This document shows positions 1,389 to 53,259 of a stretch of 64,000 nucleotides of DNA, piece by piece. Both the position numbers and the translations under genes were made by a program. The first letter of the stretch is position 1; each line of letters opens with the position of its first letter. The notes under the pieces were generated by a model. The model was not told the DNA's origin. It made no database searches and saw nothing but the letters and a program-made list of their open reading frames with translations. Source of the DNA: Cystobasidiomycetes sp. EMM_F5 (taxonomy: Eukaryota); NCBI GenBank assembly GCA_051047955.1, contig JBPGPT010000053.1, forward strand, positions 1 through 64,000, read 5' to 3'.

Positions 1389-4300
1389 ATGAGCGGCCAT
1401 GGTCCGAGCGGGAATGGGAACGGAAACGGAAACGGAAACGCCCAAGGGCAAGGGCAAGGGCAACCTCACCCAATGCACGCCCCGCCCAGCGTGTCGGCGT
1501 CGTCCATGACGGCAGCGGCGGCGGCAGACGCCTACTACAACTCCGCCTCCAAGCTCCGCGAACCCTACCCGGCCTGGGTCAACAACATTCCCCTGTCAAA
1601 GGAGGAGATTGAGGATGTCTACATTGACCTCGCAAACAAGTTTGGCTTCCAGAGGGACTCGATGCGAAACATGTACGATCATCTCATGGTACAGCTCGAT
1701 TCCAGGGCGTCGAGTGAGTGATTTGGTGTATCCGTCGGGGCGTGGCGGTGTGGAATGCAAATAAGATCATTGCTGACGTTGTACGCTGTCGACTGCAGGA
1801 ATGAGTCCGAATCAGGGTGGGTAGTAGTCTACTGTTCCCCGATCCGACTGACCTGTCACTCACAGCCCTGCTCACACTCCACGCCGACTATATCGGAGGC
1901 GAGAATGCAAACTACCGCAAATGGTACTTTGCATCCACCCTAAACCTCGACGACGCTATCGGCCAGACGCAGAATGCCGCCCTGCCAGGTCTGGCTCGCA
2001 AGGCAAAGACTGGTGCAGCAAAGTCGGTCGAATCGGCTGCAAACCGATGGAGGCATGCAATGGCAAACATGTCGCAGTATGACCGCGTACGCCAACTAGC
2101 CCTCTACCTCCTCTGCTGGGGCGAAGCTGCCCAAGTCCGCTTCGTGCCAGAGTGTCTGTGCTTCATCTTCAAATGCGCAGACGACTATTACCGGAGTCCA
2201 GAATGTCAGAATCGAGTGGAGCCTGTCCCTGAAGGCCTGTACCTTCGTGCAGTCATTCGTCCTCTGTATCGCTTCATTCGCGACCAGTCGTACGAAGTTG
2301 TCGAGGGCGTCTTTGTCAAGAAGGAAAAGGACCACGACCAAACGATTGGCTACGACGATGTCAACCAGCTCTTTTGGTACCCCGAAGGTATCGCACGCAT
2401 CGTTCTCACAGACAAGACAAGACTCATCGACGTTCCGCCCAACCAACGCTTCATGAAGTTTGACAAGATTGAGTGGGCGCGTGTGTTTGAAAAGACCTAC
2501 TTTGAACGAAGGTCATTCCTCCACCTTCTCGTCAATTTCAACCGTATCTGGGTGTCGCACATTGGCATGTACTGGTTCTACACTGCCTTTATCGCAACAA
2601 ACATCTACACTCTGTCTGGTCAAAAGGATTACGCTCCCGCTATGCGCTGGTCGGCTGTCGGTCTCGGGGGAGCAGTCACTTCGCTCATCATGATTGCTGC
2701 CACGCTCGCAGAGTACAGCTACGTTCCGCGCACTTGGAACAATACAAAGCACCTTACAGGCAGGCTCATCTTTCTCCTCGTCATCTTTGCCTGTACCCTC
2801 GGTCCCTTTGTCTATGTCTCGCACGGCACATCTATACGCTTCACAATGACGGCCCGCATCGTGGCCTACGTGCAGTTTGCTATCGCCATCGTTGCGACCT
2901 TTACCTTTGCCATCGTGCCTTCTGGACGGATGTTTGGAGATCGCGTAGCCGGTAAAGCTCGCAAATACCTTGCCAACCAGACCTTTACCGCATCCTACCC
3001 TCGTCTAACGCGACACGAGCGCATGGTCAGCATTCTCCTTTGGGTGCTCGTCTTTGGCTGCAAATTTACCGAATCATACTTTTTCCTGACCCTGTCTTTC
3101 GAGAATCCGATCCGTGTCATGGTTGGTATGCGAGTACAGAACTGCAGCGACAAGATCATGGGTGCCAATCTCTGTCGATACCAGCCAACATTTGCGCTAG
3201 TAGCCATGTTCATCATGGACATCGTCCTCTTCTTCCTCGATACCTTCTTGTGGTACGTTATCTGGAACACGGTCTTCTCCATCGCACGTTCATTTGCGTT
3301 GGGTTTGTCCATCTGGACACCGTGGAAGGACATCTTTACCCGACTGCCGAAACGCATCTACGCCAAGCTGCTGGCTACGGCGGATATGGAAATTAAATAC
3401 AAGCCCAAAGTCCTCGTGTCACAAGTCTGGAACGCAGTCATCATATCAATGTACCGTGAGCATCTCCTCTCCATCGACCATGTACAGCGTCTCTTGTACC
3501 ATCAAGTTGCTTCCGAGGTAGACGGTCGCCGTACGCTACGAGCACCTGTCTTCTTTGTCGCGCAAGGCGATAGCAAGCTCAAGCAGGAATTCTTCCCCAG
3601 CGGATCCGAGGCTGAACGTCGAGTCTCCTTCTTTGCTCAGTCACTTACAACGTCCATTCCGGAACCGCTGCCTGTGGACGCCATGCCCACATTTACCGTT
3701 CTCACACCGCACTACTCGGAGAAGATTCTCTTGTCTCTTCGTGAAATCATCCGTGAAGAGGATCAGCACACTCGCGTTACTCTACTTGAATACCTGAAGC
3801 AATTGCATCCGATTGAATGGGACAACTTTGTACGCGACACCAAGATTCTGGCAGAGGAATCTTCTGTCTTTTCGGCATATCCATTCGCAAATGGCCAAGG
3901 CGCGGATAGCGAGAAGGGCGATTCCAAGAGTAAGGCTGCTGATGACATTCCCTTCTACACTATCGGTTTCAAGTCTGCCGCTCCGGAATATACGTTACGT
4001 ACCCGTATCTGGGCTTCACTTCGTGCACAGACCCTGTATCGAACCGTTTCAGGGTTTATGAACTACAGCAAAGCCATCAAGCTGCTCTACCGCGTCGAAA
4101 ACCCAGAGGTTGTCCAACAATTCGGAGGTAACACTGAGCGACTCGAACGCGAGCTCGAACGAATGGCTCGTCGCAAATTCCGATTCGTCATTTCCATGCA
4201 GCGTTACAGCAAGTTCAGCAAGGAAGAAGTCGAAAACACAGAATTCTTACTTCGCGCATACCCGGATCTGCAGATTGCTTATTTAGATGAGGAGAGACCC

Positions 4301-6907
4301 CGAAAGGAGGGCGGCGAACCGCGCATATATTCTGCTCTTATCGATGGGCATTCTGAGATCATGCCAGACGGACGTCGTCGACCCAAGTTCCGCATCGAGT
4401 TACCCGGTAATCCGATCCTTGGTGACGGCAAATCAGACAATCAGAATCACGCAATCATCTTCTATCGCGGTGAATACGTTCAGCTTATCGATGCCAATCA
4501 AGACAACTACCTCGAAGAATGCATCAAGATTCGCAACGTGCTCGGCGAGTTCGAGGAATTGCATATCGGAGCCAAGGACCCGTATGCAACGAATTCTGCG
4601 CAGCAGGCCAAGTCGCCAGTCGCTATTGTCGGTGCAAGAGAGTACATTTTCTCGGAGAATATCGGTATCCTCGGTGATGTCGCTGCTGGCAAGGAGCAGA
4701 CATTTGGCACTCTTCTTGCGAGGTCTCTCGCTCACATTGGTGGAAAATTGCATTACGGTCATCCTGATTTCCTCGCCGCCATCTACATGACGACTCGCGG
4801 TGGTGTCTCAAAAGCGCAAAAGGGCCTGCATCTCAACGAAGATATCTATGCCGGTATGAATGCGTTTGGTCGAGGTGGCAGAATCAAGCATACCGAATAC
4901 TATCAGTGCGGTAAAGGTCGTGATCTGGGCTTTGGCACTATTCTTAATTTCCAGACCAAGATTGGGACGGGAATGGGTGAACAGATGCTCTCCCGTGAAT
5001 AGTGAGTAACTATGTCATTCGCACAATAGCTTGGAGTGTGACTGATGTATTTCGTTATTACAGCTACTACCTTGGCACACAGCTGCCTTTGGATCGATTC
5101 CTCACCTTCTACTACGCGCATCCTGGTTTCCACATCAACAACATTCTTATTATTTCGGCTGTACAGCTCTTCATGCTGGTATTAGTCATGCTCGGAACGA
5201 TGAATCAAGGTCTTTTCATCTGCCGATATACCGCAGATGGTCAATTCTTCGGCAATCAGAATGGATGTTACAACCTTGTGCCCGTCTATGACTGGATCAA
5301 GCGTTGCGTCATTTCCATCTTTATCGTGTTCTTCATCGCCTTCTTGCCACTCTTCCTGCAGGAGTTGTGCGAGAGAGGCGTTCTAAAAGCCTTATACCGT
5401 CTCGGGAAGCAGTTCCTGTCGCTGTCGCCCATCTTCGAAATCTTCAACACGCAAATCCTCACTCACTCCATCCTCAGCGACCTGTCCTTTGGTGGTGCCC
5501 GTTATATCGCTACTGGCCGTGGTTTCGCAACATCGCGTATCTCCTTCTCTATCCTTTATGCGCGTTTCGCCGGTCCGTCGATCTATATGGGGATGAGATT
5601 GCTGGTCATGCTCCTCTACATTACCTTGACTGTTTGGATCTGGCATCTCATCTACTTCTGGATTACAATCTGTATGTCAAACACGCCCATCGTATCCGAC
5701 AGAAGTCAACATGCAGCTGACTTAGTACTTGAATACAGCTGCGCTTGTCATCGCTCCTTTCGTGTTCGACCCACACTTCTTCCAGATTGGTGACTTCATC
5801 ATCGACTACCGAGAATGGCTAAGATGGCTGTCCCGAGGCAACTCCAAGTCGCATGCCAATTCATGGATTGGCTACTGCAGACTCAGCCGGACTAGAATCA
5901 CAGGCTTTAAGAAGAAGAGTAAGCGTTACCTTACTATCCATCATCGCGCAGGCAGCTTACCATTGTTCGCTCAGGACTTGGTGTTCCCTCCGAAAAGCTC
6001 GCTGTCGATGTTCCGCGTGCGAGCTTGAAGACTGTCATTGTTTCCGAGCTGTCTGGCCCTTTGGTCGGTGCGGTCGTTATGATCATTTCGTACAGCTTCG
6101 TCAAATCTCTCGAAAGACCGGCTGTTAACGCCTTATTGCGTATCGCCATCATTTCGCTGGGGCCTCTCGTTTGGAATATGGTAGTCCTCCTGTCCTTATT
6201 CTTCACATCGCTCTTCTTTGGCCCCATGTTGGCAAACTGCTGTGGCAAGGTGCGTAGCTCTGACTACGGTCTACCCCTTTCTAACTGACCAGATTCTGAA
6301 AAAACAGTTCGGTGCGACAATGGCGGCGATTGCTCACACCTTGAGCGTTGTCGGCATGATTGGCTTCATGGAATTCTTGTGGTATCTGGAACGGTGGAAC
6401 GTATCTCATGCTGTGCTCGGCATCCTTACCGCCATGGCTATTCAGCGATTCTTCCTCAAGCTCCTCACGGCTATCTTCCTCAGTCGTGAGCTGAAGAGTG
6501 GCGAGTCTAACCATGCTTGGTGGACTGGGCGTTGGTACGGACGAGGACTGGGAGGTCAAGCATTCACGCAGCCTTTGCGCGAGTTTGTCGTCAAGATTGT
6601 CGAAGCTTCTGCATTCGCAGCCGACTTTTTGACTGGCCAATTCATGCTCTTCCTTCTCTTCATTCCGTGCCTTATCCCATACTTCGACCGCATACACTCT
6701 GTTGGCTTGTTCTGGCTTCGACCATCTCAACAGATTCGGCCACCAATTCTGTCGTACAAGCAACGAGCTATGCGCCGAAAGATCATCTTCAAGTACAGTT
6801 TGGTCTTCCTGCTGTCATTTGCATTCTTTGCAGCTCTCATTGTGGTGCCGGTCGTCTTCAGGACGCGCATCTCAGAATTGAATTGCAGGATATGCAACAA
6901 TATCTAA
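1389..6907 (+). CDS. FKS1: 1,3-beta-glucan synthase catalytic subunit (GT48), multi-exon
   Basis: ORFs 1389-1721, 1817-5002, 5002-5793, 5729-6028, 6025-6288 and 6218-6907 join through GT-AG introns, including an approximately 18-nt microexon (R-MSPNQ). Motifs: [29 protein letters not shown], [55 protein letters not shown]. Confidence 0.98.
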
Positions 6908-8859: not shown

Positions 8860-10069
8860 ATGCCTGGTCCGGTTACAATCAGCTACAGAGACCTGCTGAA
8901 AGATGACTGCTCTCCGCTTCATCAAGACATATCCGCCGCTTTTGGATCCAGCAAAGACGCCCTGGGCATAATCCTCGTATCAGACCTGCCGGAGGAATGG
9001 CCAAAACTACGCGAGAACGCTATGCGTGCAGCCGCTAGATTCGCAAGCCTTCCCGAGAGCGTCAGGGAAAAGTACACGGATCCAGACTCGTCCTACTCGT
9101 TTGGCTGGTCGCACGGCAAGGGTGGGCGTCAGTCATGCAGAGAAGACGATAACGCTGACTTTGAGACATTTAGAAATTATGAACGGCAGGCCAGACACGA
9201 TGAAGGGGTCATTCTATGCCAACCCCACGACAGACCATCCTCAGGCAAGCGACGACCAGCGCAAACAACACCCAACGTACCTTAGAGACAACATTTGGCC
9301 GTCCGAGCAAGACTGTCCAGGATACAAGGAGGCGCACAAGGCTCTGTCCGAGTTCATGACCGGTGTCGGGCTCCGACTAGCCAAAGCATGCGATCAGCTG
9401 GTCGCGCAATATACCTCTACCTCCTCTATAGAGACGATGATTCGACAGAGTCAATGCTCAAAAGCGCGATTACTCCACTACTACCCGGTTCCGGGGCAAG
9501 TTGTGAGGTCGGACGAGAAGTCTTCACCAAATGGTCATGCTGGCAGCAAACGAGCAGACAGCGACGACTATTGCGGAGATCACCTAGATCACTCCCTCCT
9601 TACTGCTCTGTGTCCAGCAATGTACCTCTTCCACCCAGATGAACCTTCAGCGGACTCTCAACCAGCCATTGCTGTCCCTGCTCCGACTGCAGACGCAGGG
9701 CTATTCATTCGCAGTCGGAACGGCAAGACTGTCAAGACGGCGATACCTGCCGACTGCATGGCGTTCCAGACTGGCGAAGCACTGCAGCTGCTGAGTCGAG
9801 GCAAGCTTCAAGCTACCCCGCACTACGTGTCTGCTGGTACTGGTTCTTCGGTGCTGCCGCAGGTCCACGAAGCCATCGAGGCGTACAAGCGGCATCATCC
9901 CGAATACAAGGACGTCACTTCGGGTACAATATCTCGCGAGACCATGGCGGTATTCCTGCAGCCAAGCGTTGATGATGTGATTGGAGGAGATGCCCGTGGT
10001 CAGAAAGCGGAGACGTTTGGCCAGTTTACGCGGCGGATCATTGCGGAGCACTATTCCGAGTCGGGGTAG
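8860..10069 (+). CDS. 2-oxoglutarate/Fe(II)-dependent dioxygenase (IPNS/DIOX_N-like), one intron at about 9122-9173
   Basis: DALGIILVSDLP, YSFGWSHGKE, RLLHYYP, HxD (DHLDHSLLT), FQTGEALQ, distal His (ATPHYV) and SRETMAVFLQP. Confidence 0.85.
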
Positions 10070-10341
10070 CGTGTCCGAGTTGTATTCGCCGTCGCTCGAG
10101 TCATTCATCGTGTAGCATTCCATGACATATCGTATGACTTGTCGCCGGGTACTCGGCATTCGAACGGCTGACACATAAAATGACACGACCATGGCTTTTC
10201 CTTTTGCTTTGCTCTTTTCGACCAACCAACTGGAGCACTGTCCAACATTTCGCATGAAACATTGACTGCCGCCTGCGATACTGCTCCAACGAGTTGGGCT
10301 GGCTGACGCTGCTGGATGGTGTAAAAGTCTGGCAAAGAAAT

Positions 10342-11485
10342 ATGACGGCGGCAGCGATATGGCTGCAGGCTGGGCGATGGAGCGGAAAGAGCGGCATCGC
10401 AGCGTCGCAACGTAGACTTACAGCAAAGCAAGCATCCTTTCACTCCACGGCGGCCAATTCAAGCGCTCGTCCAGCAGAAGACTCACCCCGAGCCCGCAAG
10501 AAGGTCACCCTCAAGACGCTGCAGCACAGATACATTACACAAACTCCAATTACCATGCTCACTGCGTACGATTACTCGAGTGCCAGGTTCATCGAACAGG
10601 CCGAGATTGATGTGTGTCTGGTCGGAGACTCGCTGGCAATGGTCGCATGCGGGTATCAAACGACAAACGAAATTGGGATGGACGAGATGCTATATCACTG
10701 TCGTGCGGTCTCTAGAGGCGCAAAGACTCCGTTACGGATAGGAGACATGCCATTCGGAAGTCACCAACCTTCTCTCGAAGTCGGCATCACAAACGCTATC
10801 CGTATGCTGCGGGAGGGTGGCATGGAAGCTATAAAGATTGAAGGTGGCATGGACGCAGTCCCAATCATCAGCAAACTCGTCGACCTCGGTATTCCGGTCA
10901 TGGGTCATGTTGGCTTGATGCCGCAAAGACAGGTGCGGACTTGACGAGACCTCCTGCTGACGGAAAGACCGCTGTTGTGCTTAGAGAATTGTGTTGACCC
11001 AGTCGGCCTTGTCGGGCTATCGCGTACAAGGCAAGACGGCCGAAGCGGCGATGCGATTAGTAAAGGAAGCACTAGCCGTACAAGAAGCTGGAGCTTTTGC
11101 GATGATTGTCGAAGCTGTACCTGCTCAAGTAGCGGAGAAGCTGACCACCACTCTGAGCATTCCCACAATAAGTACGCCTGTATTCGTAGCAAAGACGTTG
11201 CGTCCAAGCTGACGTGACGCTTCAGGCATCGGCGCGGGAGCAGGATGTTCTGGCCAGGTGCTAGTCACGCACGATATGCTTGGAATGACGGATCGAGTCC
11301 CGCGGTTCTGCAAGACCTTTGGCGAGATCGGCAAAGCGACCGTAGAAGCAATTTCGAGATACCGCGAAGAAGTGCGCAACAAGACCTTCCCAGACTCAGT
11401 ACAGAATACATACGAGATGCCCCCTGAAGAGTGGCAGCGGTTTTTGGAGCTCCATAGCGACTTTGAAAAGAGTATAGCCAGATAG
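10342..11485 (+). CDS. ECM31: 3-methyl-2-oxobutanoate hydroxymethyltransferase (ketopantoate hydroxymethyltransferase, PanB) with a mitochondrial-type leader
   Basis: ITMLTAYD, CLVGDSLAMV, GDMPFGS, IKIEGG, GHVGLMPQ, GYRVQGK, IGAGAGCSGQVLVTHDMLG. Two introns. Confidence 0.95.
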
Positions 11486-11651: not shown

Positions 11652-14623
11652 TCATCGCTGACGGTGTACCATAGCGGCAAGCGCATCTCCACTGGCGACA
11701 TTAAAGTCGGCGTTCGTATTGCCTTTTGGCCCTCTGAGTCCCTTGCCTTCGATACCGCGGCCAGACCTTGGTATGAGATTCTTTGGCCTCTCTTCCTCCT
11801 CTTCGTCAGACCATACACCTGCCATCTCTCTGGCTTTCCGCTTAGTCCCATGTTTTGACTCGGTAACAGATTTGCCTTTGCTAGCAATCACCTTCTTGGA
11901 AGCTTGGACGCCAGCGCCAATGCCGGTGGGCGCTTCCCGAAGTCCGAAGGCTTTGGCGAGATGACCGAGGTGCAAATTCTTGACGTGGAAGAATTGCTTC
12001 TCGTCACTAGGATGTGTGGCGTATGCTCGAACGTGGCTAGAGAATGCATTCCGAGCTTGCGCGAGGTGCTGTACAAATGTCATTAGATCCGACATGTATT
12101 TATCGAAGCAGCAACACGGCTTACTGAATTTGAATCCACGACCCATCGTTCGAAGCTCATCTGAACGTCCGTCGCGCGAGTTTCGTACTCGTGATTGTCG
12201 CCTCCGCCGAATCCAGCTTTGAGGACCGCATCAATGTCACGTTCCTTCAAGCTAGCTTGCTGTTTTTGATTGGGATCCGTGGATTGCATGGCTTGTGCTG
12301 CCCATCGAACCCATCCTGCTTCGGGTGGTAGTAAGAAAGCCCAGGACTGGCCCATCGCACCAGCTCTCGCTGTTCTACCTATTCTGTGGATGTACTCTGT
12401 CACTCCGCCCTGCATAAAAATAAACATCAGCACTTTCTGATGCGTGTAGCAGATTGACATATAGCCTTACTTCGGTAGGAAGATCATACTGTATGACGCA
12501 GCTAACGTCCTGGACATCCAGACCTCTAGCTGCAACACTTGTACATAGGAGCACGGAAGATTTGGCAGAAGGGTCTGAAAAGCCTTTCAGACTTCCTAGA
12601 CGGCTCTGCAAATCCAGACTGCCGTGTAGATGGTAAATATTGGCTCCGGGAAGGAGCATAGAGTGAGCAGCTAGCTTATCATGCCCTTCTTTGACTGCTT
12701 TCGAGCTTCCTTCTGCATTTCCCAGTGCAACTGCGCCTAATGCGTTCCAGTAAAAGTCGACCACATGCGTACAAGACATGAAGACCAGGATCTTCTGCTT
12801 CTTGTTTGCAGCAGACTTTGCGAGCAGAATCTGCCGCAGGAGAGCAACGAGAGCAACAAACCGCAGCTTGGGCGGAGTGATGCAGTAATTCTGAGATAGC
12901 TGTGACGGGGCAGTATACGAATCTTGCATGGCCGCTACAGATGCGCCCGTCGTCGCACTTTGACCGCTAGGTTTTTGCTGTTCGTCGCCCCTGATGAGCA
13001 TTGGATTCCGTAATGCTGTTCCGGCCAATTCCTTGACTTTTCCTTCGACAGTGGCAGAACACAGCACAGTCCGCCTCGCAGCCACGTGTTGGTTGTGCGC
13101 TTGTTGTCCAGACAGACGATGAGTGACTGCTCCCCTATTCTCAGCTCGCACGAGCTCTGCTTTTCGCTTTTCAAAGCGCTCGTCGAGCAACTTGACAATG
13201 GACGAAATCTGCGGCTCGAAACCCATATCCATCAAACGATCCGCTTCATCGAGAATGAGCCAGCGTAGTGATAGCAATGCATCTTCTGGTACGTCTTGTT
13301 TGCGCATTGGGGCCGCGGTGGACGTGTGACGTCGGTGCGAACGAGAAGTCGCCATATTTTCGAAATCTTCGTCTGATGAGACATTGTCGTTTTCATTCTC
13401 TTTGCCAGATGTCGAGGCGGTAGGTAGATCCTCATAGGCAAACTCATCGTCGGAATTGTCCTTTTTGGTGGTTGACCGCTTCAGCGAGGGATCGCCTGCT
13501 GTCCATTGCCGTTCTCCAGCTATTCGAAATGCTTTTGTCGCTTCGAGATGGTCGAGTAGACGCCCAGGCTGTGATGTAGATGCGCAGTCAGCATTCCGCA
13601 AAGGGTGTGGGCATGTGCGAAACTTACTGTCGCGATGAGTAAGGGAACGCCCTTTCTCAACCTCGCCTTTTCGTGCTGCCGATGTGCACCTCCTGTAAGA
13701 AGACCTGGAGTGATCCAACGATGAGATGTACCGTCCTGATTTGACGCAAAGCTGAGCAGTTTGCAAGCGACGTCGTGAATCTGACTGGCGAGTTCTCGAG
13801 TCGGGACGAGGATGATTGCCATTGTCCCTACACTTCTATCGAGAGGCTGTTTTCTTCCACTCGCTTTGAGTGAATCTGCACACTGCAGTAGATCCTGCAG
13901 GACAGGCAGCAGGTAGGACAGGGTCTTTCCCGAGCCGGTCTGAGCTTGTATGAGAGCGTCCTTTCGCCCAGACGGCGCAGAGTCGCACAGGAAGGGCACT
14001 GCTAGTTTTTGTATTGTAGTCGGATGTGACAGAGCCATCTTGTTTCGTAGATGGGCAATGATTTCTGGCCGAAGTGCCAAGTCGTCGAAATTATCGGCGA
14101 GGGACGGGGCGTTGGAGGGAGAGAGAACGGCGGCAGATTCAGTGTCGGTAGTGATATTTATGTTGGACTGCCTCTGCTTTCCTCGCTGGGGCAGACTTGA
14201 AAAGAGCGAGCTGATAATTTGCTTCTTCTGAGCTGTGACGGCGGGGGATGGCTTGGACGGGCCTGTTTCGGGGTTTGCCGTGGATGTAGACGTGGACGTG
14301 GACGGAGACTGCCTCGTCGTCGTCGTTGTCGCTGTCCTGCGCTTCTCCTTTCCATTTGCATATCCTGCCAATTCTTCATCTGCAACCATTCTTGCGATAT
14401 CAGCCTCCTGCAGCCTCTCCTTTCCCTTGACGGAGGTCACTGTTACCCCATTCTCCCCCTCCCTCTTTGCCTGCTGCTGCCTCGCTTCTCTCCTGGCCGC
14501 CTGGGTCGACTTCATTCTCGCCGTCCATCGCTGCGGGCCTTTGGCAGCGGTATGGCTCGAGTGCAGTGTCTTATTGGACGCTGTGGACGGCGATGGTGCT
14601 GCAAAGTTGAGTGTGAGGTCCAT
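11652..14623 (-). CDS. DBP7: DEAD-box RNA helicase DBP7/DDX31 (60S biogenesis), multi-exon
   Basis: [55 protein letters not shown], and the C-terminal HVRAYATHP...[16 protein letters not shown] typical of Dbp7. Confidence 0.93.
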
Positions 14624-39056: not shown

Positions 39057-40537
39057 ATGGCTTCCGCATCCAGCACCCGCCTGTCTGTCGCTTCGCCGTC
39101 GTCGCTCGCCGACACTGTCGAGCTGGCCTCGTTATCGTCGTCGTCGTCGTCTTCGAATGGCGTCCGTATGCCTCGATTCGGGCTGGGCGTGTACGAGAGC
39201 GACGGGGAGGATTGCTACAAGAGCGTGCTGTGGGCTCTCGAGGTGAGCGGGGACGGTGTAGTAGTCGAGTTGGCTGGGTTGACGGTGTTGGTCGGCATCC
39301 AGGCTGGATATCGGCTGATAGAGCAAGTTGTGACGAGATTTTAAAGTGGATACTGACGAGGAAATGTCGACTGACACTTCCGTATCCTGACCCGCACTGA
39401 CTTCCTTGACGCTCCGTCGCATCGTACACAGCTCGGCAGAATGGTACAACAACGAAGCAGAGTCTGGGAGAGCCATCAGAGGTATGTAGAGGGAACCATG
39501 ACAAATTTCCCTACGAGCACGTCTGAGCTTAGTGTAAGACTACATCAAGAAGAGCGGAACACCTCGCTCAGAAATATTCTACACGACTAAATTGATGGAG
39601 AATTTGGGATACGACCACGTCAAAAGATCTATCCGGAAGAGTCTGGATGTCGCTGGTTTGAAGTACATGTGCGTCAAACGAATCATGTAAACGGGAGATG
39701 CTTTTACTGAATCCGCATCGTCACAAGTGACCTATACCTGATACATGGCCCACATCCGGGTAAATTGCAAAGGTTTCGCCGCCGTTCCACACCGCACATC
39801 TGAAGTTTTGCCTTGTGCAGACGGAAAAGCTCGTTTGGCTTCTTGGAGAGCTATCGAAGATGCCATCAAGGAGGGTATGTCCGCTCACTCGATCCAGCTT
39901 TCCCGAGCTCAACGACACCGCTTCCCACACGCGCAGGCTTGGTAAGAGCAGGAGGAGTCTCCAACTTTGGCGTCAAGCATCTCAAAGAGCTGTATGCGTG
40001 TGAAGGAGGCTTGAAGGTACCGGTAGCTGTCAACCAGATGGATTTACACCCTTTCATGCGTAGAAAAGAGCTCGTCGACTTTTGTGTCAGTAAAGGCATC
40101 GTCATGGAGGTAAGTCTTCTCAATCAAGCTCATATGTAGATACTAACGAACTTCACGTGTCAGGCCTGGGGACCAATGGTTCGAGGTATGCGGTTCAAGC
40201 ATCCTGCACTAGTCAAGATTGCAGAAAAGCACAACAAGTCAGCAGCGCAAGTCTTGCTCAGATGGGGATTGCAACAAGGATTCGTAGTCATCCCAAAGAG
40301 CGTCAAAAAAGAGCGTATCCAAGATAATATGCGCTTGTTTGATTTCAGCTTGGACGAGTCGGACATGCAGAGCTTGGAGAATCTGGACGAGCATTTGGTA
40401 ACAGAGTGAGCGGTTTGCTGTAGCTACCATATAATGGCCGTCCGCGACTAGTGCTGACTTTTACCTATTCCAGCTGGGATCCCAGCGAGGATCCAGACTT
40501 CCCAAATTGCTCACAAGATTGCTGTGCAAGGTTGTAA
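39057..40537 (+). CDS. Aldo-keto reductase (AKR5/2,5-DKG reductase-like), multi-exon, with C-terminal ARL
   Basis: MPRFGLGVY, GYRLIDSAEWYNNE, IFYTTKL, DLYLIHGP, GVSNFG, VNQMDLHPF, AQVLLRWGLQQGFVVIPKSVKKERI and VTDWDP. Confidence 0.92.
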
Positions 40538-40991
40538 AGATCGCACAGTCGCACGATTGTGGTACTGTGAATTGTGATGTAATATACGTTGGGACTTTCC
40601 GCATTGAGAACTCGACATGACATTCAGCTGAGAGATGCTTACAACGTTACTAAGAGTATACCACATCATCCCTGCGCGAGCTCCAGTATTCTCACAGTAA
40701 GGGCCTCGATAATTCACACACTGGTTACGGTTATATTTCAACCTGGACGTTTCACCGGAACGTCTCTCTCCACCGTCTCAAGCTTACAAGGGGAAATAAG
40801 TGCTTTTCCCATCATGCAATTTGTCGCTTTTCACAGCCGCGACAATAAACTCGTGTGGGAAGCATACCCCGTCTGCAGATGCAACTATTCCTACACAGTG
40901 CCTTCAACAGGGGCTCTTTGACCCACACACATCAACACCGGATAGACACCTTTTGCAAATCGTTCGACCATCACGTCTCTTTTGCATTGAC

Positions 40992-41666
40992 ATGGCACCT
41001 GAAATGGAAGTGAGCTTCAGGAACGCTGATGAGGCAGACGTGGAAGCAATGGCATATTGCATCTCTTATCCAAACCCTGTTGGAAAGCAATCTCGCCGAA
41101 AGGTGGAAAATCTGGATGGATTCAAGCTTATAATAGCAGGTCCACCAGGAAGTCGTGCCGTTATAGGTTGGATCTCATATCGTAAATGGCCACGTCGAGA
41201 AGCCAATCCTCGACATCCCGCCCATATCCACGTAAACCGCCTGTTCGTCATCGCTTCAGCTCAAGGTCAAAAGATTGGAAAAAAATTGCTCTGGCTGGCT
41301 CTCAACGAAGCCCAGAATGAGCAAATAAGATTACGTGTACAAGCGACCCTGGATGCGGTGCCCTATTTCCAGAAGCAAGGATTCGGTGTCGATCGCTTCA
41401 ACACGGAGATCACGAGGCGACAGGACGTTTTGGATCTATGGTATGGTCATGATGAAAGAGGGCCGTCACCACGCGACATGAGCCGCCCTCCTGCAGGCAA
41501 TGCGCGTACTTCGTCTGATCGGCCCAGATCGGCAGAGCAGCCACGACAGACTACCCCGCCTGGCGAGCGCGTTAGGCAATCTCACACAGGTCGTCACTCA
41601 ACGAGGAGATCGTCTGGTCAGCGAAACCGTAACAAGCCCAAGGAGCCGTCATGCGTAATCCAGTAG
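40992..41666 (+). CDS. GNAT-family N-acetyltransferase, intronless, with a basic disordered tail and C-terminal CaaX (CVIQ)
   Basis: FRNADEADVEAM, VIGWISY, IHVNRLFVIASAQGQKIGKKLL (acetyl-CoA motif A), AVPYFQKQGF (motif B). Confidence 0.75.
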   Translation: MAPEMEVSFRNADEADVEAMAYCISYPNPVGKQSRRKVENLDGFKLIIAGPPGSRAVIGWISYRKWPRREANPRHPAHIHVNRLFVIASAQGQKIGKKLLWLALNEAQNEQIRLRVQATLDAVPYFQKQGFGVDRFNTEITRRQDVLDLWYGHDERGPSPRDMSRPPAGNARTSSDRPRSAEQPRQTTPPGERVRQSHTGRHSTRRSSGQRNRNKPKEPSCVIQ

Positions 41667-42379
41667 GACAGTAAAGAATTTATGGCTAGAGTGCCGTGAT
41701 CCGTGACGTAGGTGTGATGGATTTGCGAGAACCGATATTCTGCTACGACACTAGAGTCAAGCAGCGGAATAATTCGGTCCGTACTATTCGTGATTGAGCG
41801 TCTGGAATGAATCGCCTTATAAAGATAAGATTACACTGATCCAAAAATTGACGACTGTCATACTTGTAGCACGCGTAGTGGTAAGCGAAAGAGCAAAACA
41901 GTGCGCGCCATGTGCGAAGTGCTTGGATTACCACCTCATTACTTTGGCTCGCGACATGTTGCCCTCGTCACTGTTGATTATAAACATTATGAAAGGGAGC
42001 TATACGCAAGGTTTAATGTCGGCGCGCACGTCAGCTGCTGAGCTTCGACTTGTTTGGTTCCTCTGCGCGCAAAAGGATTGATGAGGGCTATTGGACCTCA
42101 GGCGTCCAGCCGAGCGATGTCCGGACCCGTACGTTGTAACTGTAGGACAACTGACACTGAGGCTGTTCGATTTGGCGTTGACGGCAGTACAGATGCAGGG
42201 TTGTCGTCTGGATAAAGTCAGGATACAATTGCGGTTGGGCGGAGCCCGAATCTCCTGCTCTGCATCCGCTGAAGGCAGGTTTTATTACTTTGCGAGGCGT
42301 CCGTAACATCCACATCGCGACTTCCACTCAGCACCTCTTCTGGTCGGTCCAGTCTTCGGACAACGCCAGTATCAAAAGA

Positions 42380-42949
42380 ATGCGGAAGGCAGACGTCCAC
42401 GATATAGAGGGCATGGCTTCCTGCTTGCGGAACCCACCCGTCGCTAGAGAGCGGAAGCTAGCACGTCAAGCGTTAAAGACGTATACAGTCATCGTAGCAG
42501 GTCCGGAGGGATCCCGTCAAATCAACGGATGGATCGCTTATCGCAACCTCTACCCGTCTAGGGTGGGGTCGCCAGAACCCGATCATGTCCACATTCATCG
42601 TCTTTTTGTGCGCGAAGATAACCAATCAGCGGGGCTGGGCAAGGCTCTGATCAGAATTGCACTTAACGAGGGTGCTCGCTGCCAGCTACCTGTTCGAGTT
42701 CAAGCTACCACTGCAGCCGTGCCTTATTTTCGAAAACGGGGGTTTGGTGTCGTGACCTTTGATCCCAGATTTTGCAGAACGGACGTCAAGGACATGTGGT
42801 ACGGATGGGAGGAGAAGTCAGCCTCACCTCGGATATCCGTGCCAACGCCAACGCCAACGCCATCTCGCTCGTCTCGGTCCAGATCTAGATCGCGTGACGG
42901 CGCAGGGGTTCCACGCTCGGGAAGTCGATTCCGCGCGGAACAGAAGTAA
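42380..42949 (+). CDS. GNAT-family N-acetyltransferase, tandem paralogue of 40992-41666 (start uncertain; frame open from 42290)
   Basis: MRKADVHDIEGM, INGWIAY, VHIHRLFVREDNQSAGLGKALI, AVPYFRKRGF and DMWYG are all collinear with the upstream paralogue. Confidence 0.72.
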   Translation: MRKADVHDIEGMASCLRNPPVARERKLARQALKTYTVIVAGPEGSRQINGWIAYRNLYPSRVGSPEPDHVHIHRLFVREDNQSAGLGKALIRIALNEGARCQLPVRVQATTAAVPYFRKRGFGVVTFDPRFCRTDVKDMWYGWEEKSASPRISVPTPTPTPSRSSRSRSRSRDGAGVPRSGSRFRAEQK

Positions 42950-45739: not shown

Positions 45740-47965
45740 ATGGCCATCGAGGACGCCCGGATGTCGAGCAAGGAAGCCTTTGAGCTCAACAAGGCCGCAG
45801 TGACCAAGCAGTGAGGGGGCAGGGCAGGGCAGGACGTCGAGGGCGATATCGAAAGCTGAGGATCGTATCGATATTCAGATACAAGGCCAAACCTCGTCTG
45901 GATTATAGAACTGGTGGGTAGCAGGTCTTGAAATGATAGTAAAACCTTCAGCTGACTGGCTGGCTCGTCGTCGCAGTGTCCGCAATCAATGGCGAGTTTG
46001 GGCAGGCCATATCGAGGATTGATTAGAATCCAGCATTGACGCATTGGAACTCATCAACAGGGCCCCTCGTCGTGCTCAACGATGTCCGATATGGGCAGTT
46101 TGGTGGGCTGGCTTGGATCTTTTGGCGGGGTTTTGGACGGTAAAGCTGACGACATTGGGGTTGCATCGTTTGATAGGCGAGATTGTGACGCTCTCGCTGC
46201 CAGACGGCTCAAAACGCGGTGGTCAAGTGCTCGAAGTGTCTGGTAACAAGGCAGTCGTCCAGGTGTGCTTGTGCGAGAGTTCTAATGATATAAGCAACCA
46301 TCTAATCACCGTCACACTGCCCCTCCAGGTCTTCGAGGGCACATCCGGTATCGATGTAGCAAAGACGCACATCAACTTCTCCGGACAGAGTATGCGCATT
46401 CCAGTGTCTGAGGACATGCTCGGTCGTGTATTCAACGGTTCCGGTGTGCCTATCGATAGCGGTCCCAAGGTCTTTGCAGAGGATTTCATCGACATCAACG
46501 GTATTCCTTCCTTCTTTGCGTGTTATAGTGATACCCGCTCATTTCTCGTCATTCACAGGCTCACCCATCAACCCCTCATCCCGTATCTACCCCGAGGAAA
46601 TGATCCAGACCGGTATCTCCACCATCGACGTCATGAACAGTATTGCCCGAGGTCAAAAGATTCCCATCTTTTCTGCTGCCGGTCTGCCGCACAACGAGAT
46701 TGCCGCTCAGATCTGTCGACAAGCCGGTCTCGTCAAAGGTGGCGGACACAAGGGCGCCCAAGGTGGACCTACCAAGACTGTACACGATGACCACGAAGAC
46801 AACTTCTCAATTGTATTTGGTGCTATGGGGGTCAATATGGAGACTGCCCGCTTCTTCCGCAAAGACTTCGAAGAGAACGGTTCGCTCGACAGAGTCTCCC
46901 TCTTCCTCAACTTGGCAAACGACCCCACGATCGAACGTATCTTGACACCTCGTCTGGCTCTTACCACAGCAGAATACTTTGCGTATCAGATGGAGCAGCA
47001 CGTCCTGGTCATCCTGACAGACATGACGTCGTACGCCGATGCGCTTCGCGAGGTTTCCGCAGCGAGAGAGGAAGTGCCAGGACGTCGTGGTTACCCGGGT
47101 TACATGTACACGGATCTGTCTACCATTTACGAGCGTGCCGGTCGTGTAGAAGGACGTAACGGATCCATCACCCAAATTCCTATCCTGACGATGCCGAATC
47201 AAGGTGAGTGCGCGAAATGTCCTGTACGAATAGCTGAAGCTTGACGATCACCCATTTTCCCAGACATCACGCACCCTATTCCGGATCTGACAGGTATAAT
47301 GACAGCTTTGCATACATGTTGGATTGCTGGCTAAACAATGATTGCACCTCATAGGCTACATTACGGAGGGCCAAATTGCTTTAGAGCGAAATTTGCACAA
47401 CAGACAGGTGAGGACAAAGCATTCTTTCATATTATTGTCATAGTCCTGACGAAGCGCTTCCTTGCAGATCTACCCGCCAATCGATGTCCTCCCATCGCTC
47501 TCACGGTTAATGAAGGTGAGAGGACTGACTCTACCCCATGGCAATCACTGCTCATTTCCGGTCACGTAGAGCGCCATTGGCGAGGGTTTCACGCGGAAAG
47601 ACCACAGCGAAGTTTCTAACCAGCTCTATGCCAAGTACGTCATCCGCTCTGTAGTCCTGCCGGTCAACTGCTAATGATGACCGTTACCTAGATACGCCAT
47701 CGGCAAAGACGCTGCTGCGATGAGAGCAGTCGTCGGAGAAGAGGCTCTGTCAACAGAAGAGAAGACGGCCATCGAGTTCCTTACCCGGTTCGAGAAGGAG
47801 TTTGTAACGCAAGGACCCAATGACAACCGTACCATCTTTGACAGTCTCGACCTCGCGTGGGATCTGCTCCGCATCTTCCCGAAGGATCAGCTGTCGCGAA
47901 TTTCGCCAAAGATTCTAGATGAATTCTACTCGCGCAAGACAAAGTCTACGCGAGATACTGCGTAA
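45740..47965 (+). CDS. VMA2: V-type proton ATPase subunit B, many short exons
   Basis: [85 protein letters not shown] and AVVGEEALS. Confidence 0.97.
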
Positions 47966-48463: not shown

Positions 48464-49582
48464 ATGGCCGGACAAGCCAGCATTCTGGGTGATCTGGTGC
48501 CAGACGACAAGTACGAGTGGTGCCTGGACCTCGGATATACTATAACTACCGCAAACGTTGCCTATCAGGCGGAGCGCAAGGCAGACGGTCCTGAAGTGAT
48601 AGCCGAATTCCAGCAACACGTCGCACGCCTCACCGAGCTGAGCCAAAACATGATTACAAGATACATATCAGAGATTATACGCTTTGAACCGAGAGCAGCA
48701 AACTTCAGCCTCCTGGACTACCTGCGCAAGATTGCCAAAGAGGCCGCAGACAAGTACTCTCCGTCAGCCGCCGCGTTTGTCATGATAGGTGCTGCGTTTT
48801 CGCACGTCCAGCATACTGGACGGCTGGCTATCGACGATGCTACAAAGTCAGCTCAGCTGCGAGTTGCAGGAATGGAGTTCTTGGGAGTCGCTAGAAGATA
48901 CTGCAACCAAGATCGACATCTTGACGTGACGGCGTGTCAGGCGCTCATACGTTCCGAGTGTCGAGCTAAAGTCGACTTGGCGTACTTTTCTGGCTCGACC
49001 ATGTTGTCGGCCCTGCAAGCTGGCACACAGCCCGAGTCCATTTTGCTGATATTGCCAGATCCACAAGATGCATCACCGCTAGGATTGTTGCACGAGATGG
49101 CTGCAATTCAAAACAGCCTTCAGCTAGGTCAGCACTCTAGACACTACAAGCTTCACGTCCACCCTGCAGCACAATTTCCTCAACTCCCACTGCAGCTGAG
49201 TCAGTCAAAGGCTACGATTGTCCATTTCGCTGGACATGGAGAGGGTGGCGTATTGATGTGGCAGAAGCAGGATGGCAAGGTCAAGGGCTACTCAGCATCC
49301 GTCCTCGGCAAGGTGCTAGCCTCGACTAAACGAGTCAAGCTCGTCATTCTGAACGCCTGCCATAGCAACGACGGAGTGCACGAGATGGCAAAGCACGTAC
49401 CAAACGTCGTCAGCATGCGGGGTGAAATAGGTGACGACGCTGCAACCATCTTCTCTCGCCATTTCTACGAGCTCTTGGCCAATGGCGAAGCCGTAAAGAC
49501 GGCGTTTGACACAGCCAAGTTGATGGCCGAGATTGAAGGACCTTGTGATACATTTGATGCTCATCTTCTGCAGCAAGATTAG
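48464..49582 (+). CDS. CHAT-domain (caspase-like, clan CD) protease with an unknown helical N-terminal domain; intronless
   Basis: ILLILPDP..LGLLHEMAAI, IVHFAGHG (catalytic His), LVILNACHS (catalytic Cys), VVSMRGEIGDDAATIFSRHFYELLANGEAVKTAF. Confidence 0.85.
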   Translation: MAGQASILGDLVPDDKYEWCLDLGYTITTANVAYQAERKADGPEVIAEFQQHVARLTELSQNMITRYISEIIRFEPRAANFSLLDYLRKIAKEAADKYSPSAAAFVMIGAAFSHVQHTGRLAIDDATKSAQLRVAGMEFLGVARRYCNQDRHLDVTACQALIRSECRAKVDLAYFSGSTMLSALQAGTQPESILLILPDPQDASPLGLLHEMAAIQNSLQLGQHSRHYKLHVHPAAQFPQLPLQLSQSKATIVHFAGHGEGGVLMWQKQDGKVKGYSASVLGKVLASTKRVKLVILNACHSNDGVHEMAKHVPNVVSMRGEIGDDAATIFSRHFYELLANGEAVKTAFDTAKLMAEIEGPCDTFDAHLLQQD

Positions 49583-49952
49583 AGCGGAGATGCTGGCCTG
49601 GCTGGTCTCCTGCATCACTCCTACACGACCGCGTATGGCTGTTGTTCGTCCCTTACCACTCAGTCTCGTGTCGTGTCGTACTATTTTCTGGATATTCTGT
49701 TATATTTAGGACCGAGTGCGTTAATCGGATGTTGCGTCAGCTCCACGGGATCGGTGCAATGTCATTAGCGGAGGACATATTCCCTTGCTAAGCATCAAAA
49801 GCAGAAATACTATCAATATCGAAAGCGACCTTTTATTCCAGACACAACAGTATGCGCGCACAAGTCTAGCAGGCTCTTGGTGTGGTCCCCTGTCGATGCG
49901 ATGGAAGTGTAGACGCTAGCGTGGCCAAAAGAGTGCTAGGATGAATCAACAA

Positions 49953-50888
49953 TCACTGTTGAAAGAGAGTACGGACATTAGCCAAGATGACAATGTGCAA
50001 TTGTATTTGGGTGCGACTAACATCCTTCATCTCTGCGTCGCCAGTCTTTGCCTCTGTCGACTTTGATGACCTATCCTTTCGCTCGAGGAGGGCCGAGCGA
50101 TCCTTGTCGAGCTTGAGCTTTGTGACTACGACGTTGGAAGGGTGTACGCCAATGGGAACTGTCGCGCCATTCGTCTTTTCCCTGTGCACCCGCTCTACGT
50201 GGATGACAAACTTTTTGCGGTACACCTGAGTCACTTTGCCTTCCCGACCCTTGTATGTCCCCCGGACAATCAGCACTTCATCGTCCTTGCGGATTGGAAT
50301 GGAGCGAGCCTGTGTGGATGAGTAATGTCAGTACTCCCTCGTTTACACATCGTATACTGGAGAGTCGGCAGAGCAGGGCGGGAAGGTATATCGACTGGAG
50401 ATGTGATTGCAAATTGGCGGAATGTGTCGACGTTGTCCAGATGTCGGAAATCAGCAGGGTGCTGAATAGCAAAACCATTGGATGGTCTTCCTGGATCGTC
50501 CTGAAAAGTCTCCTCGGTACATGCTGAATGAACAGCCGCAGTTACTGGCGGACCAGAGAAGTGCGATGCATCTATAACCTCCGAATGGTCTACCATCTCT
50601 CGTGTCGTAGTCTGCAGTGTCGAGTCGAGTCGTCGTCGTCGTCGTCTTTGCCGATGTGCCTAATCCCTGCCCTGCCTAATCCCTGCCCTTTTTTCGCCCA
50701 ACTCACGCTATGCTTTCCTCTGAGCTCCTTTGACAGAGCTGCCGACATGAGCGTCCTCCTCACGCTCGATGGGGCATCAAAGTGCGCCTTTCGCGACTTG
50801 CGAGACGACGACGAGACGTCTGGGTTGTTGGAGTCAGCGATTGTTGTGCAACCATCAATTACGCATATCCACCTTTTGAGTACTTCAT
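49953..50888 (-). CDS. RPL26: 60S ribosomal protein L26 (uL24), three introns
   Basis: [84 protein letters not shown]...[16 protein letters not shown]. Confidence 0.97.
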
Positions 50889-51167
50889 GGTTGCTGCAGG
50901 TATCTGAAGTGATGCTACGCTCTGATGGGAAGGGATTTGGGAATGGACCTTTCAGGATTCTTGATTTTTCCGGGAAGGCTGAGGCCCAAGAAAAAAGAAA
51001 AGAAAGGGGGAACTCGGGAGAGACATGTTCTTCGCAACCGTTGGAGCGAACATGTCCTACGTCGCGACAGGAGACGCGTCGATGATTCAAGTTGGCAATG
51101 CTGCTGCTGCTGCTGTTGCTTCTTCTTTGTCAGAAGATCCGCAGATACAATCTTCACATCTGCTGAT

Positions 51168-53259
51168 ATGCCGTACAACTCTGCTAACACTGCTAACATC
51201 ACCCTCGAAGACTCGCTCCGCCAACTGATCAGTGACGAGGTGCAGTGCGCCATCCCCCCGCCAGCTGAGACGCACGAGCTAGTCGTAGAGGCTATACGAT
51301 TCAGCAGCACCTTGTCCGACCCTGTGAAGGATGTACTCGAGAAAGCCTGGTGCATGCAGCCGCTAGTCGCAGCCGACGTCTACGGCCAAGACTGGGTTTC
51401 AGACGCACTTGCGACCGACAGGCAGCTCTGGGAGAATGTCGAAACAACTTTTGCAGCAAAGGTCGCAGGGAAATACAAGACAGAGCGACTCGCACCGTAA
51501 GAGACTGCTCATACAGCTAACATACGTCGCTCTTCAAGCGGTCAGTCTGACGCGACTACTTTTTGCCATACCTTTGCCACCAGTTTTGTAGAGTGGTCCC
51601 CCGGCCATCCCATTTGCATCCAGAACTGGCCGACACTATCCAAAAACGCCTCTAACCCTGATGCTGACCTCTGGGATCCTTCAAACTCGTCTCATTGCGC
51701 TCATTACCTCCGCAAAGAAGGCATGGAGGCCGCCAAAGTCTGCGTATTCGACTGGACGCCAGCACGTTTTTCTAACGAACTAACGGGCAAAGATCCACAA
51801 GCCAAGCTTCCTGACGAGTTTCTAAATGCTTGCGACGCATGGGTGTACCATCGCATTCGAGCCACCATCGCCTGCAACGCGACCGTCATCATCATCTCCT
51901 CATGGTGCCGCAATCGCTTCTTTTCGCAGCACACCCGCCAAAATCTGCAGACTTACCCTTTGACGGTCAATCTACCCATTACACCCTCACATTCGATGCC
52001 CAGCGATTTCTATTTCCTTCGCTGCATCGGTCCGAATTCTATTCAGTACGCTGGTTGCGGCAAAGTCTTCTTCAAAGCTTCTATCGCGACACTGACCAAA
52101 AAGACTCCGATAAGCAAGCTTGCAGAAAGCGTAAGGTTCTGAGATGCAACGTTTTTGCGTTATTGAATAGCTTGTACAGGATCTTAAGCTCAATCTCATA
52201 TATGTAAGCTGTCTACCTCTATTTTCTTTACTCCACCTGCCTCGTATCCTACACCTCGCTTCTGGCATCGCAGGCGCTCACGACTACCTCTGGTTCTGCT
52301 ACGGTACCGCCCATCTAGCCAAAGTTGGCCGAGACCAGAATATCACCTTCGGAAGCGTCAACGATGCTGTAAGCGCTGGAGGAACCGTTCATTTTTGGAA
52401 TCGACTCGAGTTATACCACGCAAACAACGCTACCCACATCACATCAATCAAATTGCTCCTTCCAGCCAGCCGACGCGAATGTCTGATCGCACAGGCTGAT
52501 AAACTCATGCGCTATCGTGCAGCCATCACTACAGCTCAGATCCGAAAATACGAGATTGACGGGGAATTTCGCATCGGAACAGGTTCGCAGCAGCGGGCTG
52601 ACCGCACAGCCCAGCGCCGCGACTACGAGGTGAATGGCGAGATGCGCACCGGCACCGGCACCCAGCAGGGAGTGGATCGCAGCGCCATCACGCGAGCGCA
52701 GCGACGTGACTACGAAGTGGATGGCGAGATGCGTAACGGAACCGGTATCCAACAGGGGAAAGACCGAACAGCTTAGCGTCGCGACTACGAAATTGACGGC
52801 GAGACTCGTCACGGAACTGGTTTCCAGCAGAGAAGAGATCGCACAGCTCAACTTCGCGACTACGAGGTGAATGGCGAGATGCGTAACGGAACCGGCACCC
52901 AGCAAAGAGTGGATCGCAGCGCCATTACGCTAGCGCAGCGACGTGACTACGAAGTGAATGGCGAGATGCGCAACGGCACCGGCATCCAGCAGCTACAAGA
53001 TCGTCGCCTTGATACCCTGACCCGACAGCGAGAAGCGAAAAACGAGGCATACGCAGAACTCCTCAGTCGAACGGGCAAGAAGTACCTAGGAATGGGTCGC
53101 GGTCTTGGCGTGACAGCATCTCGGGCCGTTTCGTCCCACTCAGTCCGGCAGCCACGCTCGCATCACCCGTATCACAATCAGCAGCGACGCCCAGGGGAAG
53201 TCAGCCTCAGTCTCTGTTTAAATTACACCAGCAAGCTCCAGCCGAGCCCATCGTCATAA
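51168..53259 (+). CDS. Orphan protein (or recent pseudogene): alpha/beta N-terminal region plus a C-terminal 6-copy tandem repeat, with an in-frame TAG at 52774-52776
   Basis: Exon 51168-51496, intron 51497-51583, exon 51584-52130, intron 52131-52170. The frame is then open from 52171 to the TAG at 52774 and continues in the same frame to 53259. Confidence 0.6.
52531..53010 (+). repeat. Coding minisatellite: six units of 75-84 nt forming a 237-nt higher-order unit present twice
   Basis: Consensus peptide (T)AQRRDYE[VI][ND]GE[MFT]RxGTGxQQxxDR. Units 1 and 4 start at 52531 and 52768, 237 nt apart. Confidence 0.92.

Follow-up and report, generated by a model that had tools for sequence, protein, structure and literature searches.

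Current explanations of regulated cell death in fungi invoke HeLo/HELL pore-formers, and gasdermins that are cut by large S8 proteases or by CHAT proteases linked to tetratricopeptide repeats (TPRs) or NOD-like receptors (NLRs). What is the role of a short, intronless gene for a CHAT protease of bacterial type in a fungal genome, and where did it come from? The question is raised by one gene in a 64,000-nucleotide stretch (the window) of Cystobasidiomycetes sp. EMM_F5, contig JBPGPT010000053.1 of assembly GCA_051047955.1. Its product, here called P0001, consists of an all-helical N-terminal domain (N-dom) followed by a compact CHAT domain. Our preferred answer, to which we assign a probability of roughly 0.6, is that P0001 is a latent cytosolic protease serving as a death or defense effector of the NLR/STAND type, and a divergent member of a patchy fungal family that has both domains and goes back to an old bacterial cassette. 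The gene and its parts are as follows.

48464..49582, + strand: coding sequence of the N-dom and CHAT protein P0001, defined by the list of open reading frames (ORFs), its translation and a collinear full-length alignment with 13 relatives.
48464..49018, + strand: N-dom, all-alpha, residues 1–185, defined by AlphaFold2 (AF2) models and by 38.5 bits with a leave-out hidden Markov model (HMM).
49019..49579, + strand: compact CHAT (caspase-like, clan CD) protease domain, residues 186–372, defined by Pfam PF12770 and the AF2 fold.
49223..49240, + strand: HFAGHG motif (H254–G259), read in the sequence; H254, F255, G257, H258 and G259 are invariant in 14/14 family sequences.
49349..49366, + strand: LNACHS motif (L296–S301), read in the sequence; N297, A298 and C299 are invariant in 14/14 family sequences.

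The gene is an unbroken single-frame ORF of 372 codons running from ATG to TAG. It is a single exon, as full-length relatives are collinear with P0001 from Met1 to the C-terminus. A sequence-only reading of this locus had pointed out the single-exon ORF between a V-ATPase gene and RPL26, the two motifs of a His/Cys dyad, the lack of TPRs before the CHAT domain, the compact bacterial type of that domain and a separate helical N-terminus of about 180–185 residues and no recognized kind. The ORF and the motifs are exactly where that reading had placed them, and its other three observations were borne out by the domain searches, structural models and trees described below.

The protease half was recognized by Pfam as CHAT (PF12770) over residues 208–353 (E = 1.2e-11; score 45 bits, threshold 24 bits; profile positions 106–264 of 289). 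Peptidase_C14, the metacaspase/caspase family, remained below its threshold (15.6 vs 21.4 bits), and no TPR, ankyrin (ANK), WD40, NOD or other repeat family matched P0001 in Pfam at E ≤ 10. The SAVED_CHAT model of PADLOC scored 25 bits over residues 230–353 only, using profile positions 329–455 of 498, which are its CHAT part; a Pfam search found no SAVED domain in P0001. The full-length AF2 model, generated from a 14-row family alignment, has a mean predicted local distance difference test score (pLDDT) of 78.7 and a predicted template modeling score (pTM) of 0.68. In this model HFAGHG comes after strand 252–256 and LNACHS ends strand 293–300, so that His precedes Cys on consecutive β-strands. 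C299 is the presumed catalytic Cys, and H258 is the residue that, going by the general caspase/CHAT pattern, we take to be the catalytic His. A Foldseek search with the CHAT half returned the activated SAVED-CHAT filament (8tl0) as the best PDB match (E = 5e-10; 20–23% identity over ~190 columns; root-mean-square deviation (rmsd) ~3 Å), followed by separase 5fby (E = 8e-6), C11 peptidase 6n9j and caspases (E ~1e-3); the separase alignments have an rmsd of ~23 Å and hence represent no true superposition. As modeled, the C-terminal half of P0001 has the caspase-like α/β fold. P0001 is a CHAT-type clan CD protease with an intact, albeit presumed, dyad, and its CHAT domain is of the compact kind dominant in bacterial conflict systems. 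The protein is presumably an active protease.

The N-terminal half is a different matter. AF2 models of the full-length protein and of residues 1–188 alone (pLDDT 77.3; pTM 0.79) both contain seven to eight helices (15–39, 43–65, 83–97, 100–119, 125–146, 155–167 and 177–187); a low-confidence linker lies at 168–171, and the α/β domain begins with strand 191–196. Conserved features of N-dom include an N-terminal G-x-L (G9, L11), W19, G24 and a central helix of small and hydrophobic residues (A104, G109). To score the domain we built an HMM from 13 fungal N-doms, keeping out P0001 and two other proteins, P0018 and P0072. The three scored 38.5, 51.8 and 62.2 bits, respectively (E = 9e-5, 8e-9 and 5e-12 at Z = 1.8e9). 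Because the scored sequences had been left out of the model, this homology is free of circular model building. In every occurrence seen, CHAT directly follows N-dom. Other resources gave little. Nothing rose above noise in Pfam or NCBIfam, and the ESM Atlas, queried with P0001 and P0018, returned no usable match. In a profile search of PDB sequences N-dom matched nothing but XaxA (E = 2.1) and, for compositional reasons, a designed coiled coil (E = 1e-4). The best Foldseek match in PDB had E = 0.5 (14-3-3 and designed repeats), and the best VIA-align match had Z = 6.3 (designed helical proteins, NasR and sensor-kinase four-helix bundles), which is noise level for helical models. HeLo/HELL, the MLKL four-helix bundle and death folds were absent from the Foldseek and VIA-align rows for N-dom, both searches being weak for a helical bundle. 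A complex prediction of N-dom against the CHAT half, run without alignment or controls, scored 0.00 and speaks neither for nor against binding.

How common is this combination of domains? An exhaustive phmmer search of 1.84 billion cluster representatives produced 12,767 matches at E ≤ 1e-3, of which only five, the query included, reached E ≤ 1e-30. Most of the best 150 of these matches cover residues ~186–360 alone. Among the matches listed, P0015, P0018, P0027, P0032, P0036 and P0089 align in one stretch from residue ~5 to ~360, and the N-terminal HMM also finds N-dom in P0072 and P0135, which brings the carriers to 9 of 151 proteins including the query. Profile searches of a word-indexed collection added P0152–P0156 and P0159–P0161. 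In a metagenome scan, 553 stretches matched, 379 of them relatives, and 80 loci were kept. Seven of these 80 (L009–L015) cover both halves, and they are exactly the ones matched by the N-terminal HMM among 88 loci. Altogether, the family with both N-dom and CHAT comprises ~22 sequences that are fungal, have intronless coding regions and are non-syntenic between genomes. P0135, a hypothetical protein of Cladosporium inversicolor in NCBI, is its sole named member; the rest come from metagenome contigs of fungal appearance. That we are dealing with a fungal family at differing genomic sites follows from eukaryotic or fungal neighbors, single-frame alignments and the lack of a common context. Eukaryotic or fungal Pfam-annotated neighbors are present at five of the seven metagenome loci (L010, L011, L012, L014 and L015) and include a kinesin-3 with FHA and PH domains (L012), thymidylate synthase (L015) and a ZIP transporter (L011). 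The V-ATPase/RPL26 context of the window gene was found at none of the seven.

At the sequence level the family is both divergent and constrained. P0001 is only 23–29% identical to 14 relatives, yet 23 columns are invariant in 14/14, including H254, H258, N297, A298 and C299; conservation to this degree is far more than chance would leave. A UBA domain is found at the C-terminus in two fungal subgroups, one represented by P0072 (residues 402–435; 52 bits) and the other by P0135 and P0159–P0161 (residues ~363–399). P0001 has none. The UBA domains suggest rewiring to eukaryotic partners. The locus pairs L012/L009 and L010/L013 are identical or one site apart and are uninformative for the ratio of non-synonymous to synonymous substitution rates (dN/dS).

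Two of the metagenome loci have ankyrin genes nearby. At L014 an NLR-type gene with NACHT (NPHP3_N) and ankyrin domains (4208–6853, +) precedes the family member (10001–11086, +) on the same strand by 3.1 kb, and a Velvet-factor gene (12474–12941) follows. At L010 the member (2913–3983, +) lies 1.2 kb downstream of a protein-kinase gene with ankyrin repeats (161–1647, +). The arrangement at L014 may reflect a functional pairing or a coincidence. Ankyrin-gene neighbors in two of five contexts are too few for linkage.

The link to bacteria comes through P0018, the sole bacterial-type carrier of N-dom, in which the domain and CHAT are preceded by bDLD3, a bacterial Death-like adaptor domain (91.6 bits). 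According to Kaur et al. 2021 (PMC8195603), bDLD3-caspase fusions are effectors often encoded beside AP-ATPases. The bDLD3 domain is absent from P0001 and from the seven fungal members scanned (P0015, P0027, P0032, P0036, P0089, P0072 and P0135). The CHAT domain of P0018 is 43–54% identical to stretches in Chlorobium limicola, two cyanobacteria, a Blastocatellia metagenome-assembled genome (MAG), Candidatus Electrothrix and an Aminicenantes MAG, and a stretch in a proteobacterial MAG shares 63% identity with its bDLD3. All eight loci matched by P0018 match CHAT or bDLD3 alone, and no N-dom was found in their six frames. Another bacterial-type protein, P0109, has a CHAT domain 78% identical to that of P0018; no N-dom signal was obtained from the 280 residues at its N-terminus. 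Such near CHAT domains behind unrelated N-terminal regions indicate that the region before this CHAT type has been shuffled in bacteria, and recently. By eye only, the N-terminal region of P0109 looks like a trypsin-like peptidase with a hydrophobic segment.

A wider view of this CHAT type was provided by the partner domains of non-family proteins: of 141 such proteins among the best matches, 101 were scanned. All 101 carry CHAT, and the partners include TIR_2 (5), TIR (4), EAD1 (3), Metallophos (3), SAVED (2) and sigma-70 region 4 (2), as well as EAD10, nSTAND_NTPase5, SIR2_2, pentapeptide and others. Bacterial conflict systems draw on this same repertoire.

Trees of the CHAT domain place the family among bacterial proteins. 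A FastTree phylogeny of 244 CHAT domains (160 proteins and 84 locus ORFs; HMM coverage of at least 140 positions and E ≤ 1e-5) unites 21 fungal members and P0051 in one clade, whose common ancestor with P0001 spans 26 of the 244 tips. P0051, a CHAT-only sequence of 195 residues, is probably a fragment. We also ran an IQ-TREE quick search (LG+C20+F+G4) on 71 rows, made up of 15 family rows, 8 chosen rows, 6 from named bacterial genomes and every fifth remaining row; near-duplicates (L009, L013, P0153, P0154, P0156, P0159 and P0161) were left out, and canonical fungal TPR-CHAT proteins are not in the tree. Here P0001, 14 fungal rows and P0051 fall on one side of a branch with a Shimodaira–Hasegawa-like approximate likelihood ratio (SH-aLRT) of 78. 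With the P0018/P0109/Chlorobium clade they are part of a group of 26 rows (support 85) that is itself embedded among bacterial rows. The composition of the window gene is that of its surroundings, with a GC content of 0.530 and 0.573 at third codon positions (GC3); its distance in relative synonymous codon usage (RSCU) to the pooled other long ORFs of the window is 0.131, inside the range of 0.072–0.154 for 11 other ORFs there.

The evidence is most economically accounted for by an old transfer of the N-dom and CHAT cassette out of bacteria, followed by divergence, relocation and loss. Bacteria hold by far the greater diversity of this CHAT type; we infer both the direction and the age of the transfer. 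The sequence-only reading had proposed a horizontal acquisition by EMM_F5 and had set against it the alternative of a vertically inherited, broadly conserved fungal clade. A recent or isolated acquisition did not hold up, as ~21 other fungal sequences share both domains and GC, GC3 and codon use are native. The alternative proved half right. The gene does fall inside a clade of fungal sequences, which is however not broadly conserved, having few members, a patchy distribution and no synteny.

How might such a protein work? In the mechanism that we favor, N-dom would keep the protease regulated, either through autoinhibition or as a surface for docking or sensing. The protease would then be switched on by oligomerization or induced proximity, and the active enzyme would cut target proteins in trans, leading to defense or regulated cell death. 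The cassette would have come from bacteria long ago, then diverged and moved, with UBA gained in some lineages and the cassette itself lost in most. Because of the bDLD3 fusion in P0018, the cassette could be seen as the effector end of a sensor–adaptor–protease pathway. A fusion of this kind is, in bacteria, the hallmark of effectors that STAND/NLR-type sensors recruit. We regard as doubtful a bolder version, in which N-dom and CHAT make up an undescribed trans-kingdom death-effector cassette, recruited in bacteria by STAND proteins via a Death-like adaptor and rewired by fungi into UBA-bearing or adaptor-less forms, with N-dom as a new kind of sensor or executioner in control of a stand-alone fungal 'caspase' and a death pathway independent of gasdermin clusters and NLR fusions.

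Several observations weigh against the interpretation of P0001 as an effector from an old fungal family. Pfam detected no NLR, gasdermin or other death-pathway gene within ±10 kb, where the neighbors are housekeeping genes. N-dom lacks an informative fold match, and its regulatory role is a guess. FastTree sets P0001 just outside the fungal clade, together with three bacterial-looking rows, and in the IQ-TREE phylogeny its end branch measures 2.06 substitutions per site, whereas the median is 0.43. The long branch and the support of 78 make its placement insecure, and relaxed constraint is possible. One family copy, at L015 (7393–8460, +; single-frame), carries an in-frame TAG near 8094, just before PNILHFSGHG; it is likely a pseudogene, or else contains a sequencing error, and the TAG suggests losses within the family. 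Finally, no N-dom was found in 5 + 1,203 sampled prokaryote genomes, in a search that had no positive control; one weak match (E = 3.3e-4) was rejected as an unrelated coiled-coil ORF. With a single bacterial-type carrier of N-dom and none in these 1,208 genomes, N-dom may have been transferred in either direction.

How do other explanations fare against the same evidence? P0001 might be a protease domesticated for housekeeping or proteostasis, acting for example on ubiquitinated substrates, apart from immunity or cell death. The UBA domains of P0072 and the P0135 group fit this idea, as does the position of the window gene amid housekeeping genes and outside any NLR/gasdermin cluster. However, P0001 itself has no UBA, a Death-like adaptor precedes the two domains in the bacterial counterpart, and a patchy distribution, 23–29% identity and non-syntenic sites are atypical of housekeeping genes, which makes this role rather unlikely. 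If, on the other hand, the gene were a relic, with its frame still open but drifting and unused, one could account for the long end branch, for its being a singleton without close relatives, for the stop at L015 and for the fact that the sole metagenome variant (H306Q) is non-synonymous. It is hard to reconcile such decay with an intact frame of 372 codons and full family length, with all 23 family-invariant residues kept, the dyad included, and with an AF2 model that is confident for both domains; we find a functionless gene unlikely.

N-dom might instead be the executioner, a helical membrane-damaging or toxic domain freed by self-cleavage of CHAT. There is a bacterial parallel, since the work of Aravind's group (PMC8195603) describes bacterial caspases fused to variable N-terminal effectors (EACC/caspase systems) and proposes their release by autoproteolysis. 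In the model of P0001, the small/hydrophobic helix 100–119 inside the bundle and the low-confidence linker 168–171 would suit such a scheme. Unlike mobile effector domains, though, N-dom occurs only ever with CHAT, and its conserved N-terminal motif is internal in P0018, so a free N-terminus is not required. Nor does it significantly resemble HeLo, MLKL, Bcl-2 or α-pore-forming toxins (Foldseek, VIA-align and XaxA values as above), and we judge a released executioner distinctly improbable. Least probable of all, in our view, is a recent direct horizontal transfer of a bacterial defense protease gene into the EMM_F5 genome. It would explain the lack of introns, the bacterial type of CHAT and the position of the window domain beside three bacterial-looking rows in FastTree; moreover, the only near-length non-self match in the word-indexed search was P0002, a bacterial-looking protein with CHAT and a TIR-like domain (33% identity over 46% of the query). 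However, the best identity to a bacterial-type CHAT domain is only 36–38%, N-dom ties the gene to ~21 fungal sequences, IQ-TREE joins it to the fungal clade, and its nucleotide composition and codon use match those of neighbors from which it is separated by normal intergenic spacing.

How does P0001, as a putative latent effector of the fungal family, compare with known systems? SAVED-CHAT of type III-B CRISPR signaling (8tl0) shares with it the compact CHAT core and the His/Cys dyad and is the best structural match; P0001 differs in having no SAVED sensor, an all-helical N-terminal half, a eukaryotic host and no CRISPR or CBASS context. Among bDLD3-caspase effectors of STAND/AP-ATPase conflict systems (PMC8195603), P0018 has the same N-dom and CHAT, and the CHAT domains belong to the same 26-row group, whereas P0001 and the scanned fungal members possess neither bDLD3 nor another recognized adaptor. 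Separase, caspases and metacaspases, all of clan CD, have the caspase-hemoglobinase fold and the order of His then Cys in common with P0001; it is set apart from metacaspases and caspases by scoring under the Peptidase_C14 threshold. The type IV Thoeris caspase was also considered and set aside, as the accessible portion of the preprint (bioRxiv 10.1101/2024.10.24.620036) describes no N-terminal domain comparable to N-dom.

The fungal CHAT proteases described in published studies are large, linked to TPR, ANK, WD40 or NLR, and activate adjacent gasdermins (PMC8851545, PMC10197012, PMC12881547). The HET-Q2-like TPR-CHAT protein Q2L-6 of Podospora anserina (Clave et al. 2022, PMC8851545) resembles P0001 as a CHAT-family protease of a fungus with an N-terminal extension of more than 100 residues; that article states that only 33% of the long N- or C-terminal extensions in the HET-Q2-like set could be annotated with Pfam. 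Unlike Q2L-6, in which the protease occupies residues 701–1005, P0001 has 372 residues in all. P0001 also differs from HET-Q2-like proteins in lacking TPR, ANK, WD40 and NOD and in having no gasdermin match in Pfam within 10 kb. No description of this short architecture, or of a family joining such a helical domain to CHAT, was found in the accessible literature on fungal and bacterial CHAT proteins, and the supplementary datasets of PMC8851545 might include members.

The layout seen here differs from those invoked for fungal cell death: a short stand-alone CHAT protease of bacterial type that brings along a conserved helical domain, one also present in a Death-domain-linked protein of bacteria. 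If active, it would provide a small, tractable model (372 residues, no repeats) for latency and switching of caspase-like proteases, and another case of parts of bacterial conflict systems surviving in eukaryotic genomes. N-dom is uncharacterized and could receive a family definition.

It remains to describe the surroundings of the gene. FKS1 glucan synthase at 2060–5002, together with interrupted ORFs, identifies the window as fungal. Upstream of the gene, on the + strand, Pfam finds segments of ATP-synt_ab_N, ATP-synt_ab and ATP-synt_VA_C at 46023–47962, which correspond to a V-ATPase A/B-type subunit gene; its sequence signature suggests VMA2 (subunit B). Downstream, on the − strand, Ribosomal_L26/KOW segments at 49956–51129 are RPL26 exons. 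Both flanks are thus housekeeping genes at normal intergenic spacing. The Pfam scan of the neighborhood covered 143 stop-to-stop segments of at least 70 residues between 38 and 60 kb at E ≤ 1e-3. None of the 143 matched the Gasdermin family, although fungal gasdermins may escape detection by Pfam and several segments are unannotated; nor did Pfam reveal a STAND NTPase gene adjoining the window gene. No UBA domain was found in the downstream ORF 49558–49788, and there is no second copy of N-dom or CHAT within the 64 kb. Between RPL26 and a Urb2-like gene, several ORFs of 160–213 residues (50913–53256, +) have no Pfam match and may include a small unannotated partner gene. More distant neighbors are Urb2, an aldo-keto reductase and two GNAT genes. 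The two GNAT acetyltransferase ORFs adjoin each other (40800–41663, +, and 42182–42946, +), possibly as a tandem duplicate, and the aldo-keto reductase fragments lie beside the pair at 39804–40406.

The window gene also has counterparts in environmental data. Short contigs of 151–177 bases, from phyllosphere metagenome runs and one further run, match it almost exactly. At position 49381, the third base of codon 306, contigs of two runs, one of them a phyllosphere metagenome, read G for C, which turns CAC into CAG and yields the non-synonymous change H306Q.

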